A stretch of DNA of 20,000 nt, from IMG/VR virus record IMGVR_UViG_3300035505_000652; one strand, given 5' to 3'. This document shows, one piece after another, positions 3,769 through 20,000 of the stretch. The stretch's first letter is position 1; the number at the start of each line of letters is the position of its first letter. This DNA comes from an uncultured virus (IMG/VR IMGVR_UViG_3300035505_000652) (lineage: Duplodnaviria > Heunggongvirae > Uroviricota > Caudoviricetes). A program made the position numbers and the translations under genes. Below the pieces are notes generated by a model. That model was given only the letters and a program-made list of their open reading frames with translations, was not told the origin of the DNA and ran no database searches.

Positions 3769-3797
3769 ATTATAATCTAAAAAAAATTATTTGTCAA
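3769..3797 (-). promoter_or_regulatory. Consensus sigmaA promoter
   Basis: Minus strand TTGACA-N17-TATAAT (plus strand attata 3769-3774, tgtcaa 3792-3797). Confidence 0.8.
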
Positions 3798-3977
3798 CAC
3801 AAATTCTTTTGTTTAATAGCAAGAAAGCCAAATTAGGTTGGGAGTTGTAAGATTTGTTTCAAAATAAAAATTTTCTTTTTAGTCTTAGATGCTTTTTTCT
3901 TTTTATTTCTCAACTTATTCTCACCTTTTAATCTTTGGGGGATATTATAATAAAGCTTTAAAAATTTTAATTAATGG

Positions 3978-4003
3978 ATAAATCCACATAAATGTGGATT
4001 TAT
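3978..4003. repeat. Dispersed palindrome copy 1
   Basis: ATAAATCCACAT-AA-ATGTGGATTTAT, preceded by TTAATTAATGG. Confidence 0.9.
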
Positions 4004-4101
4004 GAAAGAATAGAAACAATGGAAGTAGACACGTTGCTGAAATGCAGACAAGCATTTTTAGTTAAGCAATAAAGGGAATGATTAAAGTTTATAATACAAA
4101 A

Positions 4102-4127
4102 GAAAGGGTTGAAAAAACAACCCTTTC
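4102..4127 (-). terminator. Terminator hairpin downstream of the pncA-like gene
   Basis: gaaagggttg-aaaaaa-caaccctttc, with a T-rich tail on the minus strand. Confidence 0.7.
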
Positions 4128-4152
4128 CTTCTTGTTTTAAACCAATCCTGTC

Positions 4153-4677
4153 TTATAAGACATTAATCTGGCATAACTTCATTGCTTCCAAGGCTGTCTT
4201 ATGGCTTTCCTTGGATACGCATGCACAAAGGTCTCCAATCACGTTAACCTTTGTCTCCGGCATATATGCCTTTGCAAGCATTGCGTTTGAAATTACGCAT
4301 ATTCCCGTACAAACCCCGACAAATGTAACCTCATCAAAACCTTCATTCTTTAGATATGAAGCAAGTTCCACGCTGCCGAATGTTGGCTTGTTGAAAATCT
4401 TTGTTTCCTCACCGATAAACTGCTGTAACTCATCAATTATCTCCCAGCCATCGCTTCCTTCAATGCAATGGGGCACTGGCAAATTCTTGCCTTCCTGTGT
4501 CTCCATATAATTTTCCTGATGCGTATCCCTTGTGAATAGGATTTCAACATCTGTCTTTGCTGCCTCATCTTTAATGGCTTCGACCATTGGATTGACAATA
4601 GCCTGTGCTTCCTTGCTTCCAAGACAACCGCCAACAAAATCCTTCTGCATGTCAATTATTACAAAAGCTCTCTTCAT
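4153..4677 (-). CDS. pncA: Nicotinamidase/isochorismatase-family cysteine hydrolase
   Basis: IIDMQKDF, TRDTH, PHC, K.TFGS and GVCTGICV motifs (Asp-Lys-Cys triad and metal ligands). Start at 4677 with a GGAGG RBS. Confidence 0.85.
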   Translation of the reverse strand: MKRAFVIIDMQKDFVGGCLGSKEAQAIVNPMVEAIKDEAAKTDVEILFTRDTHQENYMETQEGKNLPVPHCIEGSDGWEIIDELQQFIGEETKIFNKPTFGSVELASYLKNEGFDEVTFVGVCTGICVISNAMLAKAYMPETKVNVIGDLCACVSKESHKTALEAMKLCQINVL

Positions 4678-4847
4678 AAAATTTTTCCTCCAAATCTTTC
4701 TTATTAATATTGAGGCTTTAACCTCTTCTTTTATATTATATATCTTATTACAAAAAATATAATAAGTCAAGTGCATTATCTAAAAAAAATTATTTTTTTG
4801 TATAAAATTTAAATAAAAAAGCTATTTTAACAACGAATCTTATATTT

Positions 4848-4911
4848 AACAATGAAGAAAACTTAAAGAAAACTAATAAATATAAGGCTTTGAGGAGTTT
4901 TCTTCATTGTT
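4848..4911. repeat. 16-bp perfect inverted repeat with 32-bp spacer
   Basis: aacaatgaagaaaact (4848-4863) and agttttcttcattgtt (4896-4911). Confidence 0.8.
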
Positions 4912-4967
4912 TTGAGCTTTCTTCTTTTTATTCTTCATTTCTTTGTTCACTAATGGAGACACGAATA

Positions 4968-5036
4968 CACATATACACATAAACCTAGCACATAAACAAG
5001 ATTTATGTGTATATGTGCTAGGTTATGTGCTTGTTT
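4968..5036. repeat. CACATA x3 / TATGTG x3 interleaved inverted repeat cluster
   Basis: cacatatacacataaa (4968-4983) pairs with 5002-5017; aacctagcacata (4982-4994) pairs with 5012-5024; aaacaag (4994-5000) pairs with 5030-5036. Confidence 0.8.
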
Positions 5037-5074
5037 TTGTAAAAAGAAAACTAAGAATACCATTAATTTAAGGG

Positions 5075-5100
5075 ATAAATTCACATGGATGTGAATTTAT
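5075..5100. repeat. Dispersed palindrome copy 2
   Basis: ATAAATTCACAT-GG-ATGTGAATTTAT, preceded by TTAATTTAAGGG. Confidence 0.9.
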
Positions 5101-5264
5101 AATACAGTATGAAACCATAGAAATCTTATACGTTTAAATAAACTTTTCTATTGATAAGATGCACCAAACATAAAATAGCCTTTTTGTTGTCAAGCATTTT
5201 TGCTTTAGATATAAATTTACCCTGCTATACCAAGATATCCAAAATATTTTATTCTATATTTTTC

Positions 5265-5289
5265 CAAATCCACATTCTTTGTGGATTTG
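5265..5289. repeat. Dispersed palindrome copy 3 (variant, opposite polarity)
   Basis: CAAATCCACA-TTCTT-TGTGGATTTG, followed by aCCATTAATTAA (reverse complement of the TTAATTAATGG flank). Confidence 0.8.
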
Positions 5290-5495
5290 ACCATTAATTA
5301 ATATACTTAAGTTCCTTATCACTCTCCCATCAAGCTAAAACCTCTTTTATTATTTCAATTTTCCTTAAAAGCAAACAACAAACAAGCTACCATTAAATAA
5401 AGGAATTGTCTTTTGTGTGGGAGAAATTATATTGAGGAAAAAGAATAAAAAGACAAAAGCTTTAATGAAAGGAACTTTAAATCATTGAATTGCCC

Positions 5496-5524
5496 TTGAT
5501 AAAATTGCCATTTTGTGTTATAAT
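5496..5524 (+). promoter_or_regulatory. sigmaA promoter
   Basis: TTGATA-N17-TATAAT with TGn extended -10. Confidence 0.7.
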
Positions 5525-5559
5525 ATAGTTATAAAACAATAAAGGAGTTAGAAATTTTT

Positions 5560-5898
5560 ATGAAGATTTTTTTAGATGATATACGCTCAATTCCAAACGG
5601 CTTTGAAGGTGCCAGAGGGTATGATGATTTTGTCAGGATATATTCACAAAACAAAGGCAAGGTTGAAGAGATTTCTTTAGACCATGACTTGGGGGAATTA
5701 AAGACTGGATACAGTGTTTGCCTTTGGCTTGTGGAGAATAATGCATTTGAAGGATTAAAGAAAATAACCATACACACGGCAAACCCTGTCGGTTCAAAAA
5801 ATATGGCTCAACTTTTAGATAGATACACTCCAAAGGAAGTTGAGATTTATATACTTAACCTTAACAAGGAGCTTGAAAGATATTATAGGCAATTTTAA
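5560..5898 (+). CDS. Cyclic-phosphate processing receiver-like (cREC) domain protein
   Basis: MKIFLDD.R..P, ISLDHDLG, GY....WL and IHTANPVG motifs; AAGGAG RBS. The family is common in phages. Confidence 0.85.
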   Translation: MKIFLDDIRSIPNGFEGARGYDDFVRIYSQNKGKVEEISLDHDLGELKTGYSVCLWLVENNAFEGLKKITIHTANPVGSKNMAQLLDRYTPKEVEIYILNLNKELERYYRQF

Positions 5899-5916
5899 AA
5901 TAGGGGGAAATATTTT

Positions 5917-6339
5917 ATGAAGATGAGGGATTTTGACATCAATACAAAAATATACAGCATTATGGAAATCTTAAAAAAGGTCAAGGATGGCAGCATTATC
6001 CTTGACAATGAGGAAAGCTTAGACATCAACAAGGCTTCTTTTATCATAATCCAAATATTCAGCCATATGCCGTTACCCAATATATATAGTGAAAATGCAG
6101 GAAATAATGAAATCCATGTCTTGAATTCAAAAGTATTGGATGCAATAAACAGGTATGTGAATAATGAATTTGCCTTGGATTCGATAGTTGAGGATTTTAA
6201 TGGATTAAAATATGAAGATTTAACCCCCCAATACAAAAGACGTATCATGGAGGCGAAAATCACATCATATGAAATACTTAATTATAAGCATACTTGTGAT
6301 GATTGTATTAAAATGATAAGGTTATGTTACAACATATAA
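5917..6339 (+). CDS. Degenerate DUF262 (GmrS/ParB-like) domain protein
   Basis: KASFIIIQIFSHMPLPNIY...EIHVLNSKVLDAINRYVNNEFAL...FNGLKYEDLT...KRRI follows the DUF262 layout, but VIDGQQRL is replaced by VLNSKVL. Confidence 0.55.
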   Translation: MKMRDFDINTKIYSIMEILKKVKDGSIILDNEESLDINKASFIIIQIFSHMPLPNIYSENAGNNEIHVLNSKVLDAINRYVNNEFALDSIVEDFNGLKYEDLTPQYKRRIMEAKITSYEILNYKHTCDDCIKMIRLCYNI

Positions 6340-6392
6340 TTGATGAGTGTGGTATCTTTCTTTATTTTTCTTAATCAAAATTAAAAACACAA

Positions 6393-6419
6393 CAAAAAAA
6401 CTCCCATGAGGAGTTTTTC
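6393..6419 (-). terminator. Intrinsic terminator (possibly bidirectional)
   Basis: Minus strand aaaaactcc-tcatg-ggagttttttt. Confidence 0.75.
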
Positions 6420-6720
6420 AGTGTGCGGGGCGAGCCTGCCATAAAGGTCCAATAGAATCGGCTAGTATAACACCAGCCTACATAGAGCCCACCTTGCGGT
6501 GGGAAAACCCCCTGCCTTCTCATTGCCCTTACTGGGCTACCCTCAAAAAGATACATTTTCGATATATACATATTCCCAAGGGAATATCTATATATGGGAA
6601 AATTCGCTATAAAGCTACCTATATTATTTCAAGAGTGGAGTGTTTCCCACTTAGAGAACCATGAAGTTCGCCTGATAATAATATACTTTTCCAAGTATCT
6701 AATATATTATATCCCTCAAA
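6420..6720 (-). ncRNA. Putative structured non-coding RNA, family not recognised
   Basis: GC-rich intergenic island. Minus-strand TATAAT at 6727-6732 and terminator at 6393-6419. GNRA-capped hairpins (atactt-GGAA-aagtat, cccacc-GCAA-ggtggg), G-U pairs that favour the minus strand, and a long closing helix between ~6655-6672 and ~6429-6450. Confidence 0.6.
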
Positions 6721-6886
6721 AATTTTATTATAACCAAAAAAATAAAAATTTTTAAAAAATTTTTTATTTTTTTATGTCTTAAAATACCTATCCCCTTGCC
6801 TTCTTTAACTCAATCATTAAAATTTAATATTTCCCATAAAATTCAAGTATAATAGAAATGAAGAAAAAAGAAAGGAGTAAATCTTT

Positions 6887-7759
6887 ATGGTAGGTTCAGA
6901 TAGCGGATATTTTTTAACTTATGACCTAAAAATCCTATATTGCCCAAGCATGCAGATAGCGAATGTATGCAAGGAATTAAATGTTGACACCAAGGCATTC
7001 ACCCCATTTGATGGCAATATGGCTATATTGGCAGATTCATATAAGTTGAATAAGGAAGATGTGGAGAACATTGTGGACAATGTGTTGACTGGAAAGATTG
7101 GAGAGGAACTTCCAACAGAAAACATGAATTGGCTTATAACCTTTGAAAACTTGTTGAAGGATGACCCATCACTTATAACAAACAGAGAGTTAGCTTTCAA
7201 TTACTTTATTTTAAAATTTGTATTAATGGGATTTTCTGCCGACATGGCGAAGGATATAGTGGTTACTTATTATGAACACATTATAAGGGAAGATGATGTC
7301 CCACACCCACAAATCTTATTAAATCAAATCAACAAATTCTTGACATACAAGAAGTTCTGGATTAAATACAATCTTAAGGATGAGAAGTTGAAGGAGTTCA
7401 AGATGATGAAGAAAATCATCAAGACAAAACAAGAGCTTGAAAATAAAATCAATAGAAACTTCAATTTTGACCAGATGTTTAAGAAAGAGTATCTTGAAGT
7501 TATTGGATATTCATTCGTGCCTGTATTGATAAAATTCAACCAGACAGAGGGATATCTTGTAAAAGAGAAATCTGATTTGAATACATTGATTCCATATGTA
7601 ACCCAAGTTTATCAGGAAATAATCTTAGGCATTATATATAAGATTTGCGATATAGATGAGATTGCTTATGATGAAGTATTCTTCAGCAACCTTATAAAAG
7701 AAATGACAAGCGTTGTAAAACTTTACTTAACTCTCCATTCAAATGAGTTTATAGTATAA
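6887..7759 (+). CDS. Hypothetical protein (290 aa, helical)
   Basis: Long ORF, AAGGAG RBS, TATAAT upstream; no recognised motif. Confidence 0.8.
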   Translation: MVGSDSGYFLTYDLKILYCPSMQIANVCKELNVDTKAFTPFDGNMAILADSYKLNKEDVENIVDNVLTGKIGEELPTENMNWLITFENLLKDDPSLITNRELAFNYFILKFVLMGFSADMAKDIVVTYYEHIIREDDVPHPQILLNQINKFLTYKKFWIKYNLKDEKLKEFKMMKKIIKTKQELENKINRNFNFDQMFKKEYLEVIGYSFVPVLIKFNQTEGYLVKEKSDLNTLIPYVTQVYQEIILGIIYKICDIDEIAYDEVFFSNLIKEMTSVVKLYLTLHSNEFIV

Positions 7760-7795
7760 TAGATGTTTAAGTTTTTTGGAAAAGGAGGTAGGAAG

Positions 7796-8077
7796 ATGGG
7801 AGTTTCTGGAATTTTGAGACCAAATGGGGTTTTTGTGCCATGCAGTTATAAAAACCATGGAGAGGCTGCTTCAAAAATCCCACCAGAAGAAGGTGAGTAT
7901 TGCATTTATTTGAGTAGCGGTATGGAAACCTTAAACAGTCAGGAAGCTTCCATCATCTACTTCAATGATGTGATATACAAGCAACAGGTCCAATGGTTTA
8001 GAAAACATTTCTTGGAATTGGACAATGTTCAAAAGAAACAATTCATGGAATACATGATTTCAAAGAAAAATGCCTAA
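7796..8077 (+). CDS. Hypothetical phage-type protein
   Basis: AAGGAGGT RBS supports the 7796 start. G.L.P.G.F..C....H pattern resembles small phage proteins. Confidence 0.7.
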   Translation: MGVSGILRPNGVFVPCSYKNHGEAASKIPPEEGEYCIYLSSGMETLNSQEASIIYFNDVIYKQQVQWFRKHFLELDNVQKKQFMEYMISKKNA

Positions 8078-8105
8078 AGCTTTAAGCTTTGGGCATTTCC
8101 CTTTT
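8068..8105. terminator. Bidirectional terminator
   Basis: aaatgcctaaagc-tttaa-gctttgggcattt between convergent genes. Confidence 0.75.
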
Positions 8106-8125
8106 TGTAAGTTGAATTTATTTTT

Positions 8126-8989
8126 TTAAAATGGAGCTTTGTCCTTGTCAATAAATGGGTCTGCAAACTCCATGGAATTAGTATCACTAAAAGGGTCTAT
8201 CTCTTCAATTACCGGCTCTGGTCTGTAATCCACTTTTAAAACAGGCTTTCCAATGGCAATGCTGTCCAAAGCAGCTTTTGAAGGTTCGGGTTCAGGGGCT
8301 TCCTCTTTGATTTCAGGGAAGTCTTTTACCAACTTAGGTTCTTCATCAAAAATATCCACAATCTTAGGTTCTTCACTATAATCCTTGGTTAAGACAGGGC
8401 TTCCTATTGCAATGCTGTCCAAGAAAGCTTGTGGGATTTCATCAATTTGTTCCTCAACTTTAACCTCAACCTTTGGGATTTCCAAAATACTTGGGGTTGT
8501 ATGGGGAAGCTCGGTCTTTATGGCGGTCGGCGTGTCCTTTTTGATTATGGTGTTTATTTCTTTTTGGTTCTTCCTGTTTAATGCCTTATTGTAATTGAAA
8601 GAATTATCCATGTCATCATCTGGAAAGCTTCTTCCATCAGTCATCTTTAACTCTTCAAGGTTGTTGTATCTGACGGTAATCATCCTGCTCAATGTCTGGT
8701 ATTGCTGTTTGGTCGCCTTTCCAATCTCGTCAACAAGGTTCTGCTTGTCTATAATATCTTCCTTTAAGACTTTGTTTCCCTGCCTTCCAGCCTCCCTTGA
8801 CAATATTTTCAATTGGCCCTGCAGCTCGCATAGATAGAAATATTTATTTGAAGACATCGCCAATAATTCTCCAACCATGTTGGCATCATCAATTGTATGT
8901 ATGGATGTTGGTATTTCCATATGGAACTCCTCTATAGCCCATTTTGTAAAATCCATGGGTGTCATTGCGACCAATTGCTCTAATGTCAT
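8126..8989 (-). CDS. Hypothetical protein: helical N-terminus, acidic Pro-rich C-terminus with an internal duplication, ending in PF
   Basis: GGAGGT RBS. LDSIAIG.PVL..DY..EP occurs twice; the protein ends FADPFIDKDKAPF. Confidence 0.8.
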   Translation of the reverse strand: MTLEQLVAMTPMDFTKWAIEEFHMEIPTSIHTIDDANMVGELLAMSSNKYFYLCELQGQLKILSREAGRQGNKVLKEDIIDKQNLVDEIGKATKQQYQTLSRMITVRYNNLEELKMTDGRSFPDDDMDNSFNYNKALNRKNQKEINTIIKKDTPTAIKTELPHTTPSILEIPKVEVKVEEQIDEIPQAFLDSIAIGSPVLTKDYSEEPKIVDIFDEEPKLVKDFPEIKEEAPEPEPSKAALDSIAIGKPVLKVDYRPEPVIEEIDPFSDTNSMEFADPFIDKDKAPF

Positions 8990-17840: not shown

Positions 17841-18491
17841 TTAAAAATAATCCATTCCAACAGCAAGCATAAACTCATCATAGTCAATATATTGCTTTGC
17901 TTTTAATAAAAGCTCATTTTTGTTCTTTTGAACCTCTTGAATATTTTCAAGTGAAACAAAATCCAAAGCTTTATTTTCAATATCGCTATTTGAACTAAGC
18001 TTGTTTGTATATAAAAGGTCTCTTTCATTATAAAACTCCACATAGACTCTTTTTATAATGAAGTTTGGAGTTTCCTCCATCCAATCAAAACCATATGCAT
18101 TAAAATCATCAACATCATAGATTACATCCAAATCCTTGATTTTTAAGTATCTTATCCTTGATGGTTTTAATGTTTGATTTTTTACCCATACCTCGCCAGT
18201 TTCAAAAGCATCTGGAACAAGTTCAAATTCATCCAATGTTTCAGAATCTACAAGGTTTTCATCTTCAATATCCCATTCATCAAATTCATAAAGACGGTAT
18301 ATCTCATGCAAACCCCTGTTATTCATTATGAGCTTATGCCCCCAAGGTGCGGCCATCAAACATCCTTCTATTGTTTCACAAAGACAAATTCTTGGTATCT
18401 TTCTATCTTCGCAAAGCATTTTATGGCTTGGAATGTGCGGGGTAAACAAATCAACTAATGGTTCAAACCCCCTGTCTAAATAATAGAACAT
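17841..18491 (-). CDS. Hypothetical phage-type protein (possible ADP-ribosyltransferase-like fold)
   Basis: ED..IPRICLC.TIEGCL.A and VPDA.ETGEVW motifs; AAAGGAG RBS. The fold assignment is tentative. Confidence 0.6.
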   Translation of the reverse strand: MFYYLDRGFEPLVDLFTPHIPSHKMLCEDRKIPRICLCETIEGCLMAAPWGHKLIMNNRGLHEIYRLYEFDEWDIEDENLVDSETLDEFELVPDAFETGEVWVKNQTLKPSRIRYLKIKDLDVIYDVDDFNAYGFDWMEETPNFIIKRVYVEFYNERDLLYTNKLSSNSDIENKALDFVSLENIQEVQKNKNELLLKAKQYIDYDEFMLAVGMDYF

Positions 18492-18571
18492 TGTTCCATC
18501 TCCTTTCTTTATTCTTTACATTATTATATGTTTCATTTTAAAAAAAATAGAAAATTAAGCAAAATTCCCTA

Positions 18572-18600
18572 TTGACAATGAAAGGTTTAGGCTTTATAAT
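18572..18600 (+). promoter_or_regulatory. Perfect sigmaA promoter for the rep leader mRNA
   Basis: TTGACA-N17-TATAAT. Confidence 0.9.
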
Positions 18601-18641
18601 TTAACTATATAAAATTTTTGTTTCAACAAAATTTTATGGAT

Positions 18642-18747
18642 AAAAAAAATAGGCCTTTAAGACCTAACAAATTGTCCAAATGATACATATCTTCACTGAT
18701 ATCATTTGTCGGACGAACTTTATAGAAATGAAACTTCTATAAGTTCA
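18642..18747 (-). ncRNA. Putative antisense (countertranscript) copy-control RNA, ~105 nt
   Basis: Perfect minus-strand promoter at 18754-18782; hairpins at 18715-18746 and 18672-18714; terminator taggtc-ttaaa-ggccta followed by T8 at 18642-18666. Confidence 0.75.
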
Positions 18748-18753
18748 AAAAAT

Positions 18754-18782
18754 ATTATATAATAAATCCATTAGGTTGTCAA
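18754..18782 (-). promoter_or_regulatory. Perfect sigmaA promoter, antisense to the rep leader
   Basis: Minus strand TTGACA-N17-TATAAT (plus strand tgtcaa 18777-18782, attata 18754-18759). Confidence 0.88.
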
Positions 18783-18839
18783 GACCTAACAAAAATTTTT
18801 ATATAAACAAAATTTTTTGAAACTTATAGAATTAAGGAA

Positions 18840-18880
18840 GCTTCTATCATTGTTCATCCAAACTATGATGGAAGTTTTTT
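18840..18880 (+). terminator. Attenuator-type terminator in the rep leader
   Basis: gcttctatcat (18840-18850) pairs with atgatggaagt (18865-18875), followed by TTTTT, 60 nt before the rep ATG. Confidence 0.7.
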
Positions 18881-18940
18881 ATTTGGACAAAAGGGTTTGT
18901 TTTAAAAAGGAAAGTTACATTAAAAGAAAGGAGAGGTATA

Positions 18941-20000
18941 ATGCCAAAGAAACGCTGGAGCAGGAGGGACCTTGCGAATATGTCGGCGACAATGGTTGTT
19001 AAGGAAGAAAAACGTGTCCCTTTAAAGGAAAAATTGACAGACTATGAAATATCCGTCATCCAAAACTACATAAAGATGATGTTCCCAGAAAAGATGTACG
19101 TAGGCCAGGAAAATGAAAAGGAAAATGACGCCTACATTGTCTTCAGGGACAGGAGGGATATTTATTTAAGGGCTATACGAGTATGCGACGCCTATGACAT
19201 CCACTTATTGGAGAAGGACTTAAATAAGATGTCCAGCCTTGACTTGGAGATGACGTTCAACACCTTCAGGGATTTCAAGACAACCCAATCCCATATGTAC
19301 AGCATCAACTGCATGGTAATCGATATTGACTTCAAAAAGGTTGAAGGCTACACTTCATGGGAACAGGTATTGTATTGGCTTGAACAGGACTATTTTGACA
19401 AGGTAATCCCAAAGCCAACCATTATCGAGCATGGCAACTGTATGAGGTTAATCTATATATTGGAGGAACCCATCTATATCGCCAAGAAAGCCAAGTTTAG
19501 GGGATTTATAAGCACAATCCAAGGAAGGCTTACACGCAAGTTGAGTGAGTTCGGCGGGGACTGCCAGCTTATCAATTCATACGTAAGATTGCCAGGCTCA
19601 ATCAATACAAAGACAAATGACAAGGTTGAATGGCTTCAATATTCAAATGAAAGGCTTTCCCTTCAAGACATAGTGGATGAATACGTGGAAAAGCCTTCTT
19701 GGTACAAGACAAGACAGGAGCTTAAAGAGCAGAACCTCCACCATCATGCTATTAATTGGCAATTGCACAATGCAAAGCTTTTGGAGGATGTTGTAAAGCT
19801 CCAAGCCAAGTATAACGCAATCGAGGATTTTGGACATAGGGAGAACCTTTGCTTTTTATACAAGAACTATTGTGTGCTTAACGGGTATGACTGCAAGGTT
19901 GCAGACCAAATGACCAAGGAGTTCAATAAAAACTTTAACGTCCCTTTAAATGAAAGGAAGATGCTTTCAAGCATAAGGAACGTGGGCAGGACCGACAAGA
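18941..20000 (+). CDS. Plasmid replication initiator, AEP-like/PriCT (pAMbeta1 RepE / pIP404-like); runs off the right edge
   Basis: Not in the ORF track; translated by hand from ATG 18941 (RBS AAGGAGAGGT): ...MVIDIDFK...IPKPTIIEHGNCMRLIYILEEP...VRLPGSINTKT...GHRENLCFLY...EFNKNFNVPLNE. No stop codon before 20000. Confidence 0.8.
   Translation, partial: MPKKRWSRRDLANMSATMVVKEEKRVPLKEKLTDYEISVIQNYIKMMFPEKMYVGQENEKENDAYIVFRDRRDIYLRAIRVCDAYDIHLLEKDLNKMSSLDLEMTFNTFRDFKTTQSHMYSINCMVIDIDFKKVEGYTSWEQVLYWLEQDYFDKVIPKPTIIEHGNCMRLIYILEEPIYIAKKAKFRGFISTIQGRLTRKLSEFGGDCQLINSYVRLPGSINTKTNDKVEWLQYSNERLSLQDIVDEYVEKPSWYKTRQELKEQNLHHHAINWQLHNAKLLEDVVKLQAKYNAIEDFGHRENLCFLYKNYCVLNGYDCKVADQMTKEFNKNFNVPLNERKMLSSIRNVGRTDK

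Follow-up and report, generated by a model that had tools for sequence, protein, structure and literature searches.

Structured RNAs of unknown function are few in bacteria, and those studied so far, such as 6S, ModT/raiA and OLE, have links to growth control or ribonucleoprotein complexes. The typical 6S RNA is about 180–200 nt long. The ModT RNA of C. difficile is described as an abundant, highly stable RNA that acts in trans, possesses a complex fold with pseudoknots, and occurs both as a short form and as a longer form reading into a downstream intrinsic terminator; the raiA motif is reported in the same source to be conserved in more than 2,500 species, with variable synteny (PMC11706538). 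The locus analysed here lies on a 20,000-nt stretch of DNA catalogued as an uncultured virus in IMG/VR (IMGVR_UViG_3300035505_000652; Caudoviricetes), called the window below. An earlier examination of its letters, referred to as the sequence-only reading, had proposed an unassigned structured RNA gene of about 300 nt, with its own promoter and terminator, on the minus strand at positions 6393–6732. The analyses presented below make it very probable that a real non-coding RNA (ncRNA) gene is present, with a folded product most likely of about 260–330 bases. The complete statement, that this is a stand-alone, structured minus-strand ncRNA gene outside the described families whose product acts in trans as a protein-binding RNA, is assigned a probability of roughly 45%, mechanism included.

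The candidate is a G+C-rich island in AT-rich DNA, as had been noticed from the letters. The G+C content of positions 6426–6681 is 43.4%, compared with a mean of 33.0% for the window, which corresponds to the 98.7th percentile of its 256-nt segments, while the flanks of this core reach 20–26%; the G+C-rich body itself spans approximately 6672 to 6429. In the fold scan, 618 strand-specific segments of 256 nt were folded and their energies were regressed on G+C content. The two overlapping minus-strand segments at 6337 and 6401 ranked first and third of the 618 in G+C-corrected stability, and the core fold lay below the regression by 3.1 standard deviations (sd) on the minus strand and by 1.9 sd on the plus strand. 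Against dinucleotide shuffles, z-scores of −3.76 (328 nt, minus strand), −3.32 (plus strand) and −2.73 (258-nt core) were obtained, and no shuffle was as stable. The minus strand is the better candidate because its fold is more stable by 16 kcal/mol (−103.1 versus −87.3 kcal/mol) and because the hairpin at 6478–6460 contains two G-U pairs that exist on this strand only and become A-C mismatches on the plus strand. This hairpin and the one at 6594–6563 are stable in every predicted fold, with pair probabilities of 0.67–1.0, and all of the hairpins listed in the sequence-only reading were found at their positions on the minus strand.

The exact sequence is present in RNA preparations of several independent studies. 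A public-run index returned nine runs containing the stretch, from nine studies; eight of the runs are metatranscriptomic RNA libraries, and their records name gut, freshwater and soil. When four of the RNA runs (X1–X4) were compared over positions 5400–8200, contigs identical to the window, with no differences, were recovered from all four. Three contigs consist of the RNA core alone, at 6426–6678 (253 nt), 6447–6681 (235 nt) and 6448–6672 (225 nt), and the fourth spans 5415–6678. All four stop at 6672–6681 on the 5' side of the RNA, within 10 nt of one another and without loose ends, which, in a comparison made up of RNA runs only, is a weak hint of an RNA end. The RNA contigs cover the G+C-rich core without the 5' leader hairpin and without the terminator, and the missing ends may reflect under-coverage, which is usual for the first and last 20–30 nt, or trimming at both ends. 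Over the same interval, X2 and X4 have no cover beyond the core, X3 has only 5909–6185 besides, and X1 has separate short contigs in the flanks; uncovered parts and contig depths are no evidence of ends or of relative level. The promoter-to-terminator unit of about 300 nt is thereby upheld in part: the sites exist on the minus strand and the sequence occurs in RNA libraries, but the contigs cover about 225–256 nt (6426–6681) and not the full 340 nt.

The assignment outside described families is based on Rfam 15, none of whose 4227 models reached its gathering score anywhere in the window, and on ARAGORN, which found no tRNA or transfer-messenger RNA (tmRNA) gene with default or relaxed thresholds. 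Both results agree with the earlier impression that the element is not a tRNA, tmRNA, signal recognition particle (SRP) RNA or RNase P RNA. Literature text searches, which compare words rather than sequence and are therefore silent on whether the sequence has been published, returned no description of such an RNA. Likewise, no frame tested showed conservation at the protein level. The 85-aa minus-strand frame that contains a 66-aa open reading frame (ORF) gave two matches at E ≤ 0.001 in a set of 1.84 billion representatives, each confined to a short stretch of a giant protein (4599 and 1089 aa), and the 80-aa open frame of the plus strand yielded no candidate in the protein searches. The frames of the RNA region had no match in NCBIfam and none in PADLOC or Pfam at E ≤ 10, with the exception of one Pfam row (E = 0.24; score 11.9 bits, cut-off 27). 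The claim that the island holds no credible ORF is consistent with these results, and the protein-level conservation of the 66-aa ORF that had been named as an argument against an RNA gene was not found.

The positions of all features are collected in Table 1. The upstream TATAAT hexamer proposed earlier as the promoter of the gene (P1) was confirmed both by reading and by the promoter scan. Its −35 candidates, TTTAAA and TTAAAA, are weak, and P1 taken alone is weak because the scan of 1.5 kb contained 14 promoter-like sites where 7.9 were expected. The scan demands a −35 partner, and the second TATAAT (P2) is absent from its output; P2 would place the start of the RNA near 6699, immediately ahead of the leader hairpin. 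The terminator proposed earlier was recovered by the scan as well; since a short run of T flanks its hairpin on the plus strand too, it could also serve the convergent 140-aa gene. The 10-mer CCCTCAAAAA, reported earlier as occurring twice, has exactly two exact matches in the window (6540 and 6713), both within the RNA unit, where 0.20 would be expected, and two or more matches were seen in 3 of 200 shuffles. The second copy of TTTTTGAGGG is located at 6540–6549.

Table 1. Coordinates of the candidate RNA gene, its structural elements and the neighbouring genes in the window.
Feature	Position	Strand	Basis or remark
Upstream −10-like hexamer TATAAT, candidate promoter P1	6727..6732	-	scan: 10/12 matches
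First copy of 10-mer TTTTTGAGGG	6713..6722	-	at predicted P1 transcript start
Second perfect TATAAT, candidate promoter P2	6706..6711	-	by-eye reading
5' leader hairpin ATACTT-GGAA-AAGTAT	6683..6698	-	outside all four compared RNA contigs
Core of RNA, ~256 nt, G+C-rich, strongly folding	6426..6681	-	RNA-library contigs + fold scan
5' strand GGCGAACTTCATGGTTC	6672-6656	-	sequence reading
5' strand segment GTGGGAAACACTCC	6650-6637	-	sequence reading
AU-rich hairpin TATATA-G-ATATTCCC-TT-GGGAATAT-G-TATATA	6563..6594	-	pair probability 0.99-1.0, stable in all folds
Hairpin GCCC-AGTAA-GGGC	6525..6537	-	pair probability 0.93 in core fold; 0.08-0.19 in longer transcripts
GGGGGTTTTCCCAC	6512-6499	-	sequence reading
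GGGGGTTTTCCCACC-GCAA-GGTGGG, two alternative pairings	6488..6512	-	folds
GNRA hairpin CCCACC-GCAA-GGTGGG	6503-6488	-	sequence reading + folds
Hairpin GGCTGGTG-TTA-TACTAGCC	6460..6478	-	probability 0.67-1.0 in all folds; also in hairpin/terminator scan
3' strand GGACC..ATG..AGGCTCGCC	6450-6429	-	sequence reading
Intrinsic-terminator-like hairpin, 11 pairs, then T run	6395..6419	-	scan
cREC_REC (cyclic-phosphate processing receiver) gene, stand-alone	5560-5898	+	Pfam E 2.3e-26; phrog_1479 E 1.2e-26
140-aa ORF, convergent with RNA	5917-6339	+	PADLOC NsnA E 1.5e-14 (43-167 of 385); phrog_2598 (22-148 of 352)
290-aa protein, 31-member Clostridia family, divergent from RNA	6887-7759	+	no Pfam, NCBIfam, PADLOC or PHROGs match

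Each predicted fold branches several times and leaves few bases unpaired, and the folds contain a pair of alternatives that the sequence-only reading had already pointed out. The GCAA hairpin (6503–6488) and the long-range GUGGGAAA/UUUCCCAC helix, whose partner strand is GTGGGAAAC at 6650–6642, share the motif CCCAC and are mutually exclusive, which the folds bear out. When the 258-nt core is folded, the long-range helix is favoured (0.75–0.89) and the GCAA hairpin has a probability of about 0.1; when leader and terminator are included, the GCAA hairpin is favoured (0.73–0.93) and the long-range helix falls to 0.07–0.19. The predicted preference therefore flips with the chosen transcript ends. 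This two-conformation pattern fits the earlier proposal, and it is also to be expected of any single-sequence prediction of this length. For the long closing helix, also proposed earlier, both strands are present and the pairing is possible on paper, but its pairs have an ensemble probability of at most 0.05, and forcing it gives −81.4 kcal/mol against −84.2 kcal/mol for the minimum free energy fold, i.e., a cost of 2.8 kcal/mol. Both copies of UUUUUGAGGG are able to pair with CUCUUGAAA (approximately 6634–6626, by eye), and a leader-dependent refolding through these segments is conceivable.

In the mechanism that we propose, transcription would start from one of the two TATAAT boxes (6732–6727 or 6711–6706) and end at the intrinsic terminator (6419–6395). 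The product would be stable and tertiary-folded and would act in trans, either within a ribonucleoprotein or as a decoy. It would in this resemble 6S or ModT/raiA rather than an antisense regulator or a cis-leader, and removal of the leader could re-set its fold, with the duplicated UUUUUGAGGG competing for the CUCUUGAAA segment. Protein binding in trans is suggested because no gene follows on the same strand and a G+C-rich island stands in AT-rich DNA, because there are several stable hairpins with GNRA-type loops (GCAA, GGAA), and because two long-range pairings exclude each other. Taken by itself, this function is a tentative assignment for which we would not claim even odds. A more far-reaching version, in which the RNA would be the first member of a novel class of stable RNAs with tertiary folds, from an uncultured and little-sequenced Clostridia lineage, made as a precursor that loses its 5' leader (the hairpin and the first UUUUUGAGGG copy) and leaves a core that toggles between the GNRA hairpin and the long-range helix, acting as a trans ribonucleoprotein component or decoy of the rank of 6S or ModT, appears rather doubtful.

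Two further candidates were considered and rejected. A cis-regulatory leader (riboswitch, T-box or attenuator) has no same-strand gene downstream and no match to a cis-regulatory Rfam model; the only minus-strand ORF beyond the terminator (5895–6263) overlaps the plus-strand NsnA-like gene (the 140-aa ORF), which has family matches, so the RNA is not regarded as its leader. A CsrB-like sponge was set aside as there was no enrichment of GGA motifs, with five found by eye against an estimated expectation of about four.

Several observations weigh against the proposed stand-alone protein-binding RNA. The contigs give neither the strand, the true ends nor the level of the transcript, and the runs were chosen because they contain the stretch. 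Promoter-like hexamers are common in the surrounding AT-rich DNA. The plus strand, with its z-score of −3.32, is likewise more stable than its shuffles, and the global fold is ambiguous, as three architectures lie within about 3 kcal/mol of one another or depend on the ends. The arguments for a protein-binding role are indirect. Moreover, no homologue of the RNA was found by blastn in the phage and plasmid collections, and the pattern scan of viral contigs gave none. Searches with nhmmer and blastn of 16 loci of distant relatives and cREC neighbourhoods (two genomic cREC loci, eight viral cREC loci and six metagenome loci found through the 290-aa protein) returned only AT-rich matches of at most 25 nt or with E = 1.4. 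Two records of the plasmid collection, one of them the 2.6-Mb chromosome of Acetoanaerobium (Peptostreptococcales), were searched whole and gave two 22-nt matches (E = 0.17). Orphan status would accordingly mean that there is no relative within the sets searched, which is not proof that none exists, and the proposed structure is a single-sequence prediction. The translated searches with the open frames likewise brought up no mis-annotated ORF that would betray a relative of the RNA. A second copy of the RNA was also sought within the window, and only the RNA itself was recovered.

The same failure of every search (phage, plasmid and viral contigs, the 16 loci and the Acetoanaerobium chromosome) to find a homologue would be expected of a functionless or decaying expressed stretch, i.e., a stable by-product, what is left of an acquired fragment, or a transcript peculiar to the lineage whose structure is not under selection. 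Such a reading would also agree with the stability of the plus strand and with the position of the RNA in the place of the two-thirds that the NsnA-like gene lacks, which hints at a rearrangement of the locus. We nevertheless regard it as unlikely, as the G+C island has the most stable G+C-corrected fold of the window, is furnished with its own terminator and TATAAT boxes, is represented by short exact contigs in the RNA libraries of four studies, and contains no protein remnant in any frame.

The source of the window is most likely an uncultured gut-type Clostridia bacterium, to judge from protein comparisons. Copies of the window proteins with 99% identity occur only in Logan assemblies, and the lineage is placed among uncultured Clostridia because the best named relatives are a Lachnospiraceae metagenome-assembled genome (58%, for Sir2) and Clostridioides (37%, for the 290-aa protein). 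Closer relatives of the 290-aa protein, 61–74% identical, are encoded on contigs of up to 48.7 kb. The genes are chromosomal in flavour and include YceG, LytR-CpsA-Psr, TraX, Sir2, isochorismatase, DUF805 and Ter-linked domains. The description of the RNA as element-encoded was not sustained: its basis is only two phage-type neighbour genes, and searches of the window found no integrase, transposase, reverse transcriptase, nuclease partner or att site.

The first of these neighbours, the cREC_REC gene, is convergent with the RNA gene at a distance of less than 0.5 kb. The second, the 140-aa NsnA-like ORF, appears to be a defence or phage gene that has been cut short, with only the N-terminal third present, judging from its alignment to the family models. 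The RNA gene occupies the place where the remainder of this gene would lie. On the other side, the AlphaFold model of the 290-aa protein is confident (predicted local distance difference test 92.4) and combines a small N-terminal part rich in beta structure with a C-terminal half made of helices; Foldseek gave no match to it at E ≤ 0.001, VIA-align aligned residues 162–290 only to generic helical bundles (best Z 8.0 over 79 residues), and the structure searches provided no clue to RNA binding and no informative PDB match. No functional link between the RNA and its neighbour genes was found.

These neighbours open the possibility that the RNA is part of a phage-derived or defence-island module together with cREC, the 290-aa protein or the NsnA-like protein. 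In conflicts over RNA damage and repair it could then be, for instance, a substrate, guide, antitoxin or decoy. According to what is described in PMC9503650, cREC is mostly borne by phages and prophages and occurs in RNA-repair contexts. Here the cREC gene is followed on the opposite strand to the RNA by the NsnA-like fragment, and the window also carries Ter-linked, Sir2 and isochorismatase genes. RNA genes do recur beside cREC, as tRNA genes lie within 2.5 kb of a cREC homologue in five of the eight viral loci (L009–L016), and two of these five (L013 and L014, identical in sequence) also have a borderline tmRNA match of 48.5 bits against a cut-off of 47. However, such tRNA clusters may simply mirror where large phages keep their tRNAs. 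None of the 10 cREC loci (two genomic, eight viral) contains a relative of the RNA or an NsnA-like ORF beside cREC, and none of the six metagenome loci in which the 290-aa protein has a homologue (31–50% identity) carries the RNA, about three of these having enough upstream DNA to judge. Nor did the searches of the window mentioned above turn up an integrase, transposase, reverse transcriptase or nuclease partner. A conserved module of cREC, NsnA-like gene and RNA was rejected, since neither partner co-occurs with cREC at other loci, and membership of the RNA in any such module is considered improbable.

Another reading is a small RNA that pairs with mRNAs by way of an exposed seed and so regulates them in trans. 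In line with this, the unit stands alone between promoter and terminator, no gene accompanies it on its strand, and in Firmicutes such units are often regulatory small RNAs. The present RNA, however, is long (approximately 256–330 nt), G+C-rich and nearly fully paired in every predicted fold, and a conserved single-stranded seed cannot be named from a single sequence. The terminator, which many base-pairing small RNAs keep, lies outside the RNA contigs, a weak point given that contig ends are not RNA ends. This kind of regulator is thus quite an unlikely explanation.

Far less probable is a very divergent form of a known housekeeping or large RNA (6S, SRP, RNase P, tmRNA, raiA/ModT, OLE or Y RNA) that Rfam has missed. 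In its favour, the size, the presence in RNA libraries and the possibly paired ends of the candidate resemble those of such classes, and ModT, too, is described with a short form and a terminator-bearing long form (PMC11706538). Against it, none of the models of 6S, SRP, RNase P, tmRNA, raiA, OLE, ROOL, GOLLD, HEARO and Y RNA matched either at gathering score or at E ≤ 10. The latter search, with permissive filters on 651 and 276 bases, gave 14 and 7 matches of 9.7–20.3 bits against cut-offs of 41–100; these were microRNA and small nucleolar RNA models on the AU hairpin and leader and small RNA models on the terminator, with no bacterial large RNA among them. Signature sequences of RNase P, SRP helix 8 and the tmRNA ends, looked for by eye, were not found either. 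Finally, an mRNA for the 66-aa protein is close to refuted, as its ATG-started 66-codon ORF (6571–6371, minus strand) exists but runs through the terminator hairpin, and neither the family databases nor the search with the enclosing 85-aa frame provided a real homologue.

Further observations were made elsewhere in the window. Upstream of cREC, the ORF-free gap at 4777–5559 (785 nt) contains nested palindromes at 4960–5037, has no Rfam match and folds unusually well on both strands (segments from 4801, about −2.7 to −2.8 sd). The hairpin AAATYCACA-(4–5 nt)-TGTGRATTT occurs three times (3980–4001, 5077–5098 and 5266–5288), with none expected from 200 shuffles. Each copy adjoins CCATTAATT (3969–3977, 5060–5068 and 5291–5299), which is present in six copies in the window compared with 1.17 expected. 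The hairpins flank the isochorismatase gene and could represent a repeat of the repetitive extragenic palindromic type or an operator of a DNA-binding protein. A G+C-corrected fold of −3.3 sd was obtained for 4033–4288 on the minus strand, where the isochorismatase gene has its 3' end and a terminator of bidirectional appearance is situated (4102–4127), and one of −2.3 to −2.6 sd for 18625–18880, inside the gap 18491–18941. A perfect sigma-70-type promoter (12/12; TTGACA, 17-nt spacer, TATAAT) is located at 3769–3797 on the minus strand ahead of a 180-aa gene (3740–3198) that has no family match. The minus-strand gene at 8126–8989 encodes an acidic, proline-rich protein of 287 aa in which the internal repeat LDSIAIGxPVL.. 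occurs twice, also with no family match.

The significance of the candidate depends on its relatives. Unlike most computational candidates, it has its exact sequence represented in the RNA libraries of several studies. Should relatives show covariation, a new RNA of about 250 nt that is open to experiment would be added, from a Clostridia lineage without a cultured or named close relative. The best named protein matches are 37–58% identical. If no relatives exist, it would be a lineage-specific curiosity.

Among the described systems, raiA/ModT (RF03072) is comparable to the candidate in being a stand-alone Clostridia gene of about 200–260 nt, and the RNA contigs also stop short of a downstream terminator here. 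It differs in that the RF03072 model, with its helices P1–P8 and two pseudoknots, is not matched at gathering score or at E ≤ 10, and the neighbours are not comFC or raiA, a weak criterion as raiA synteny is variable. The candidate would resemble 6S RNA (RF00013), which binds RNA polymerase holoenzyme and templates product RNA, in having a promoter of its own, in accumulating as a separate species and perhaps in ends that pair with each other; a 6S-like decoy of RNA polymerase, a scaffold or a switch had been proposed as possible roles in the sequence-only reading. Membership in that family is not borne out, because the covariance model found no match under either threshold. The single-sequence folds are multi-branched, unlike the 6S rod with its closing stem, large central bubble and terminal stem, and the RNA is longer than a typical 6S RNA. 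The ornate RNAs of the OLE, ROOL and GOLLD type are larger than the present RNA, which matched none of the Rfam models for OLE, ROOL, GOLLD and HEARO. The tRNA and tmRNA genes beside phage cREC offer a parallel of position, as here too a structured RNA gene lies less than 0.5 kb from cREC; this one, however, is neither a tRNA nor a tmRNA according to ARAGORN and Rfam, and nothing similar to it is present in those loci.

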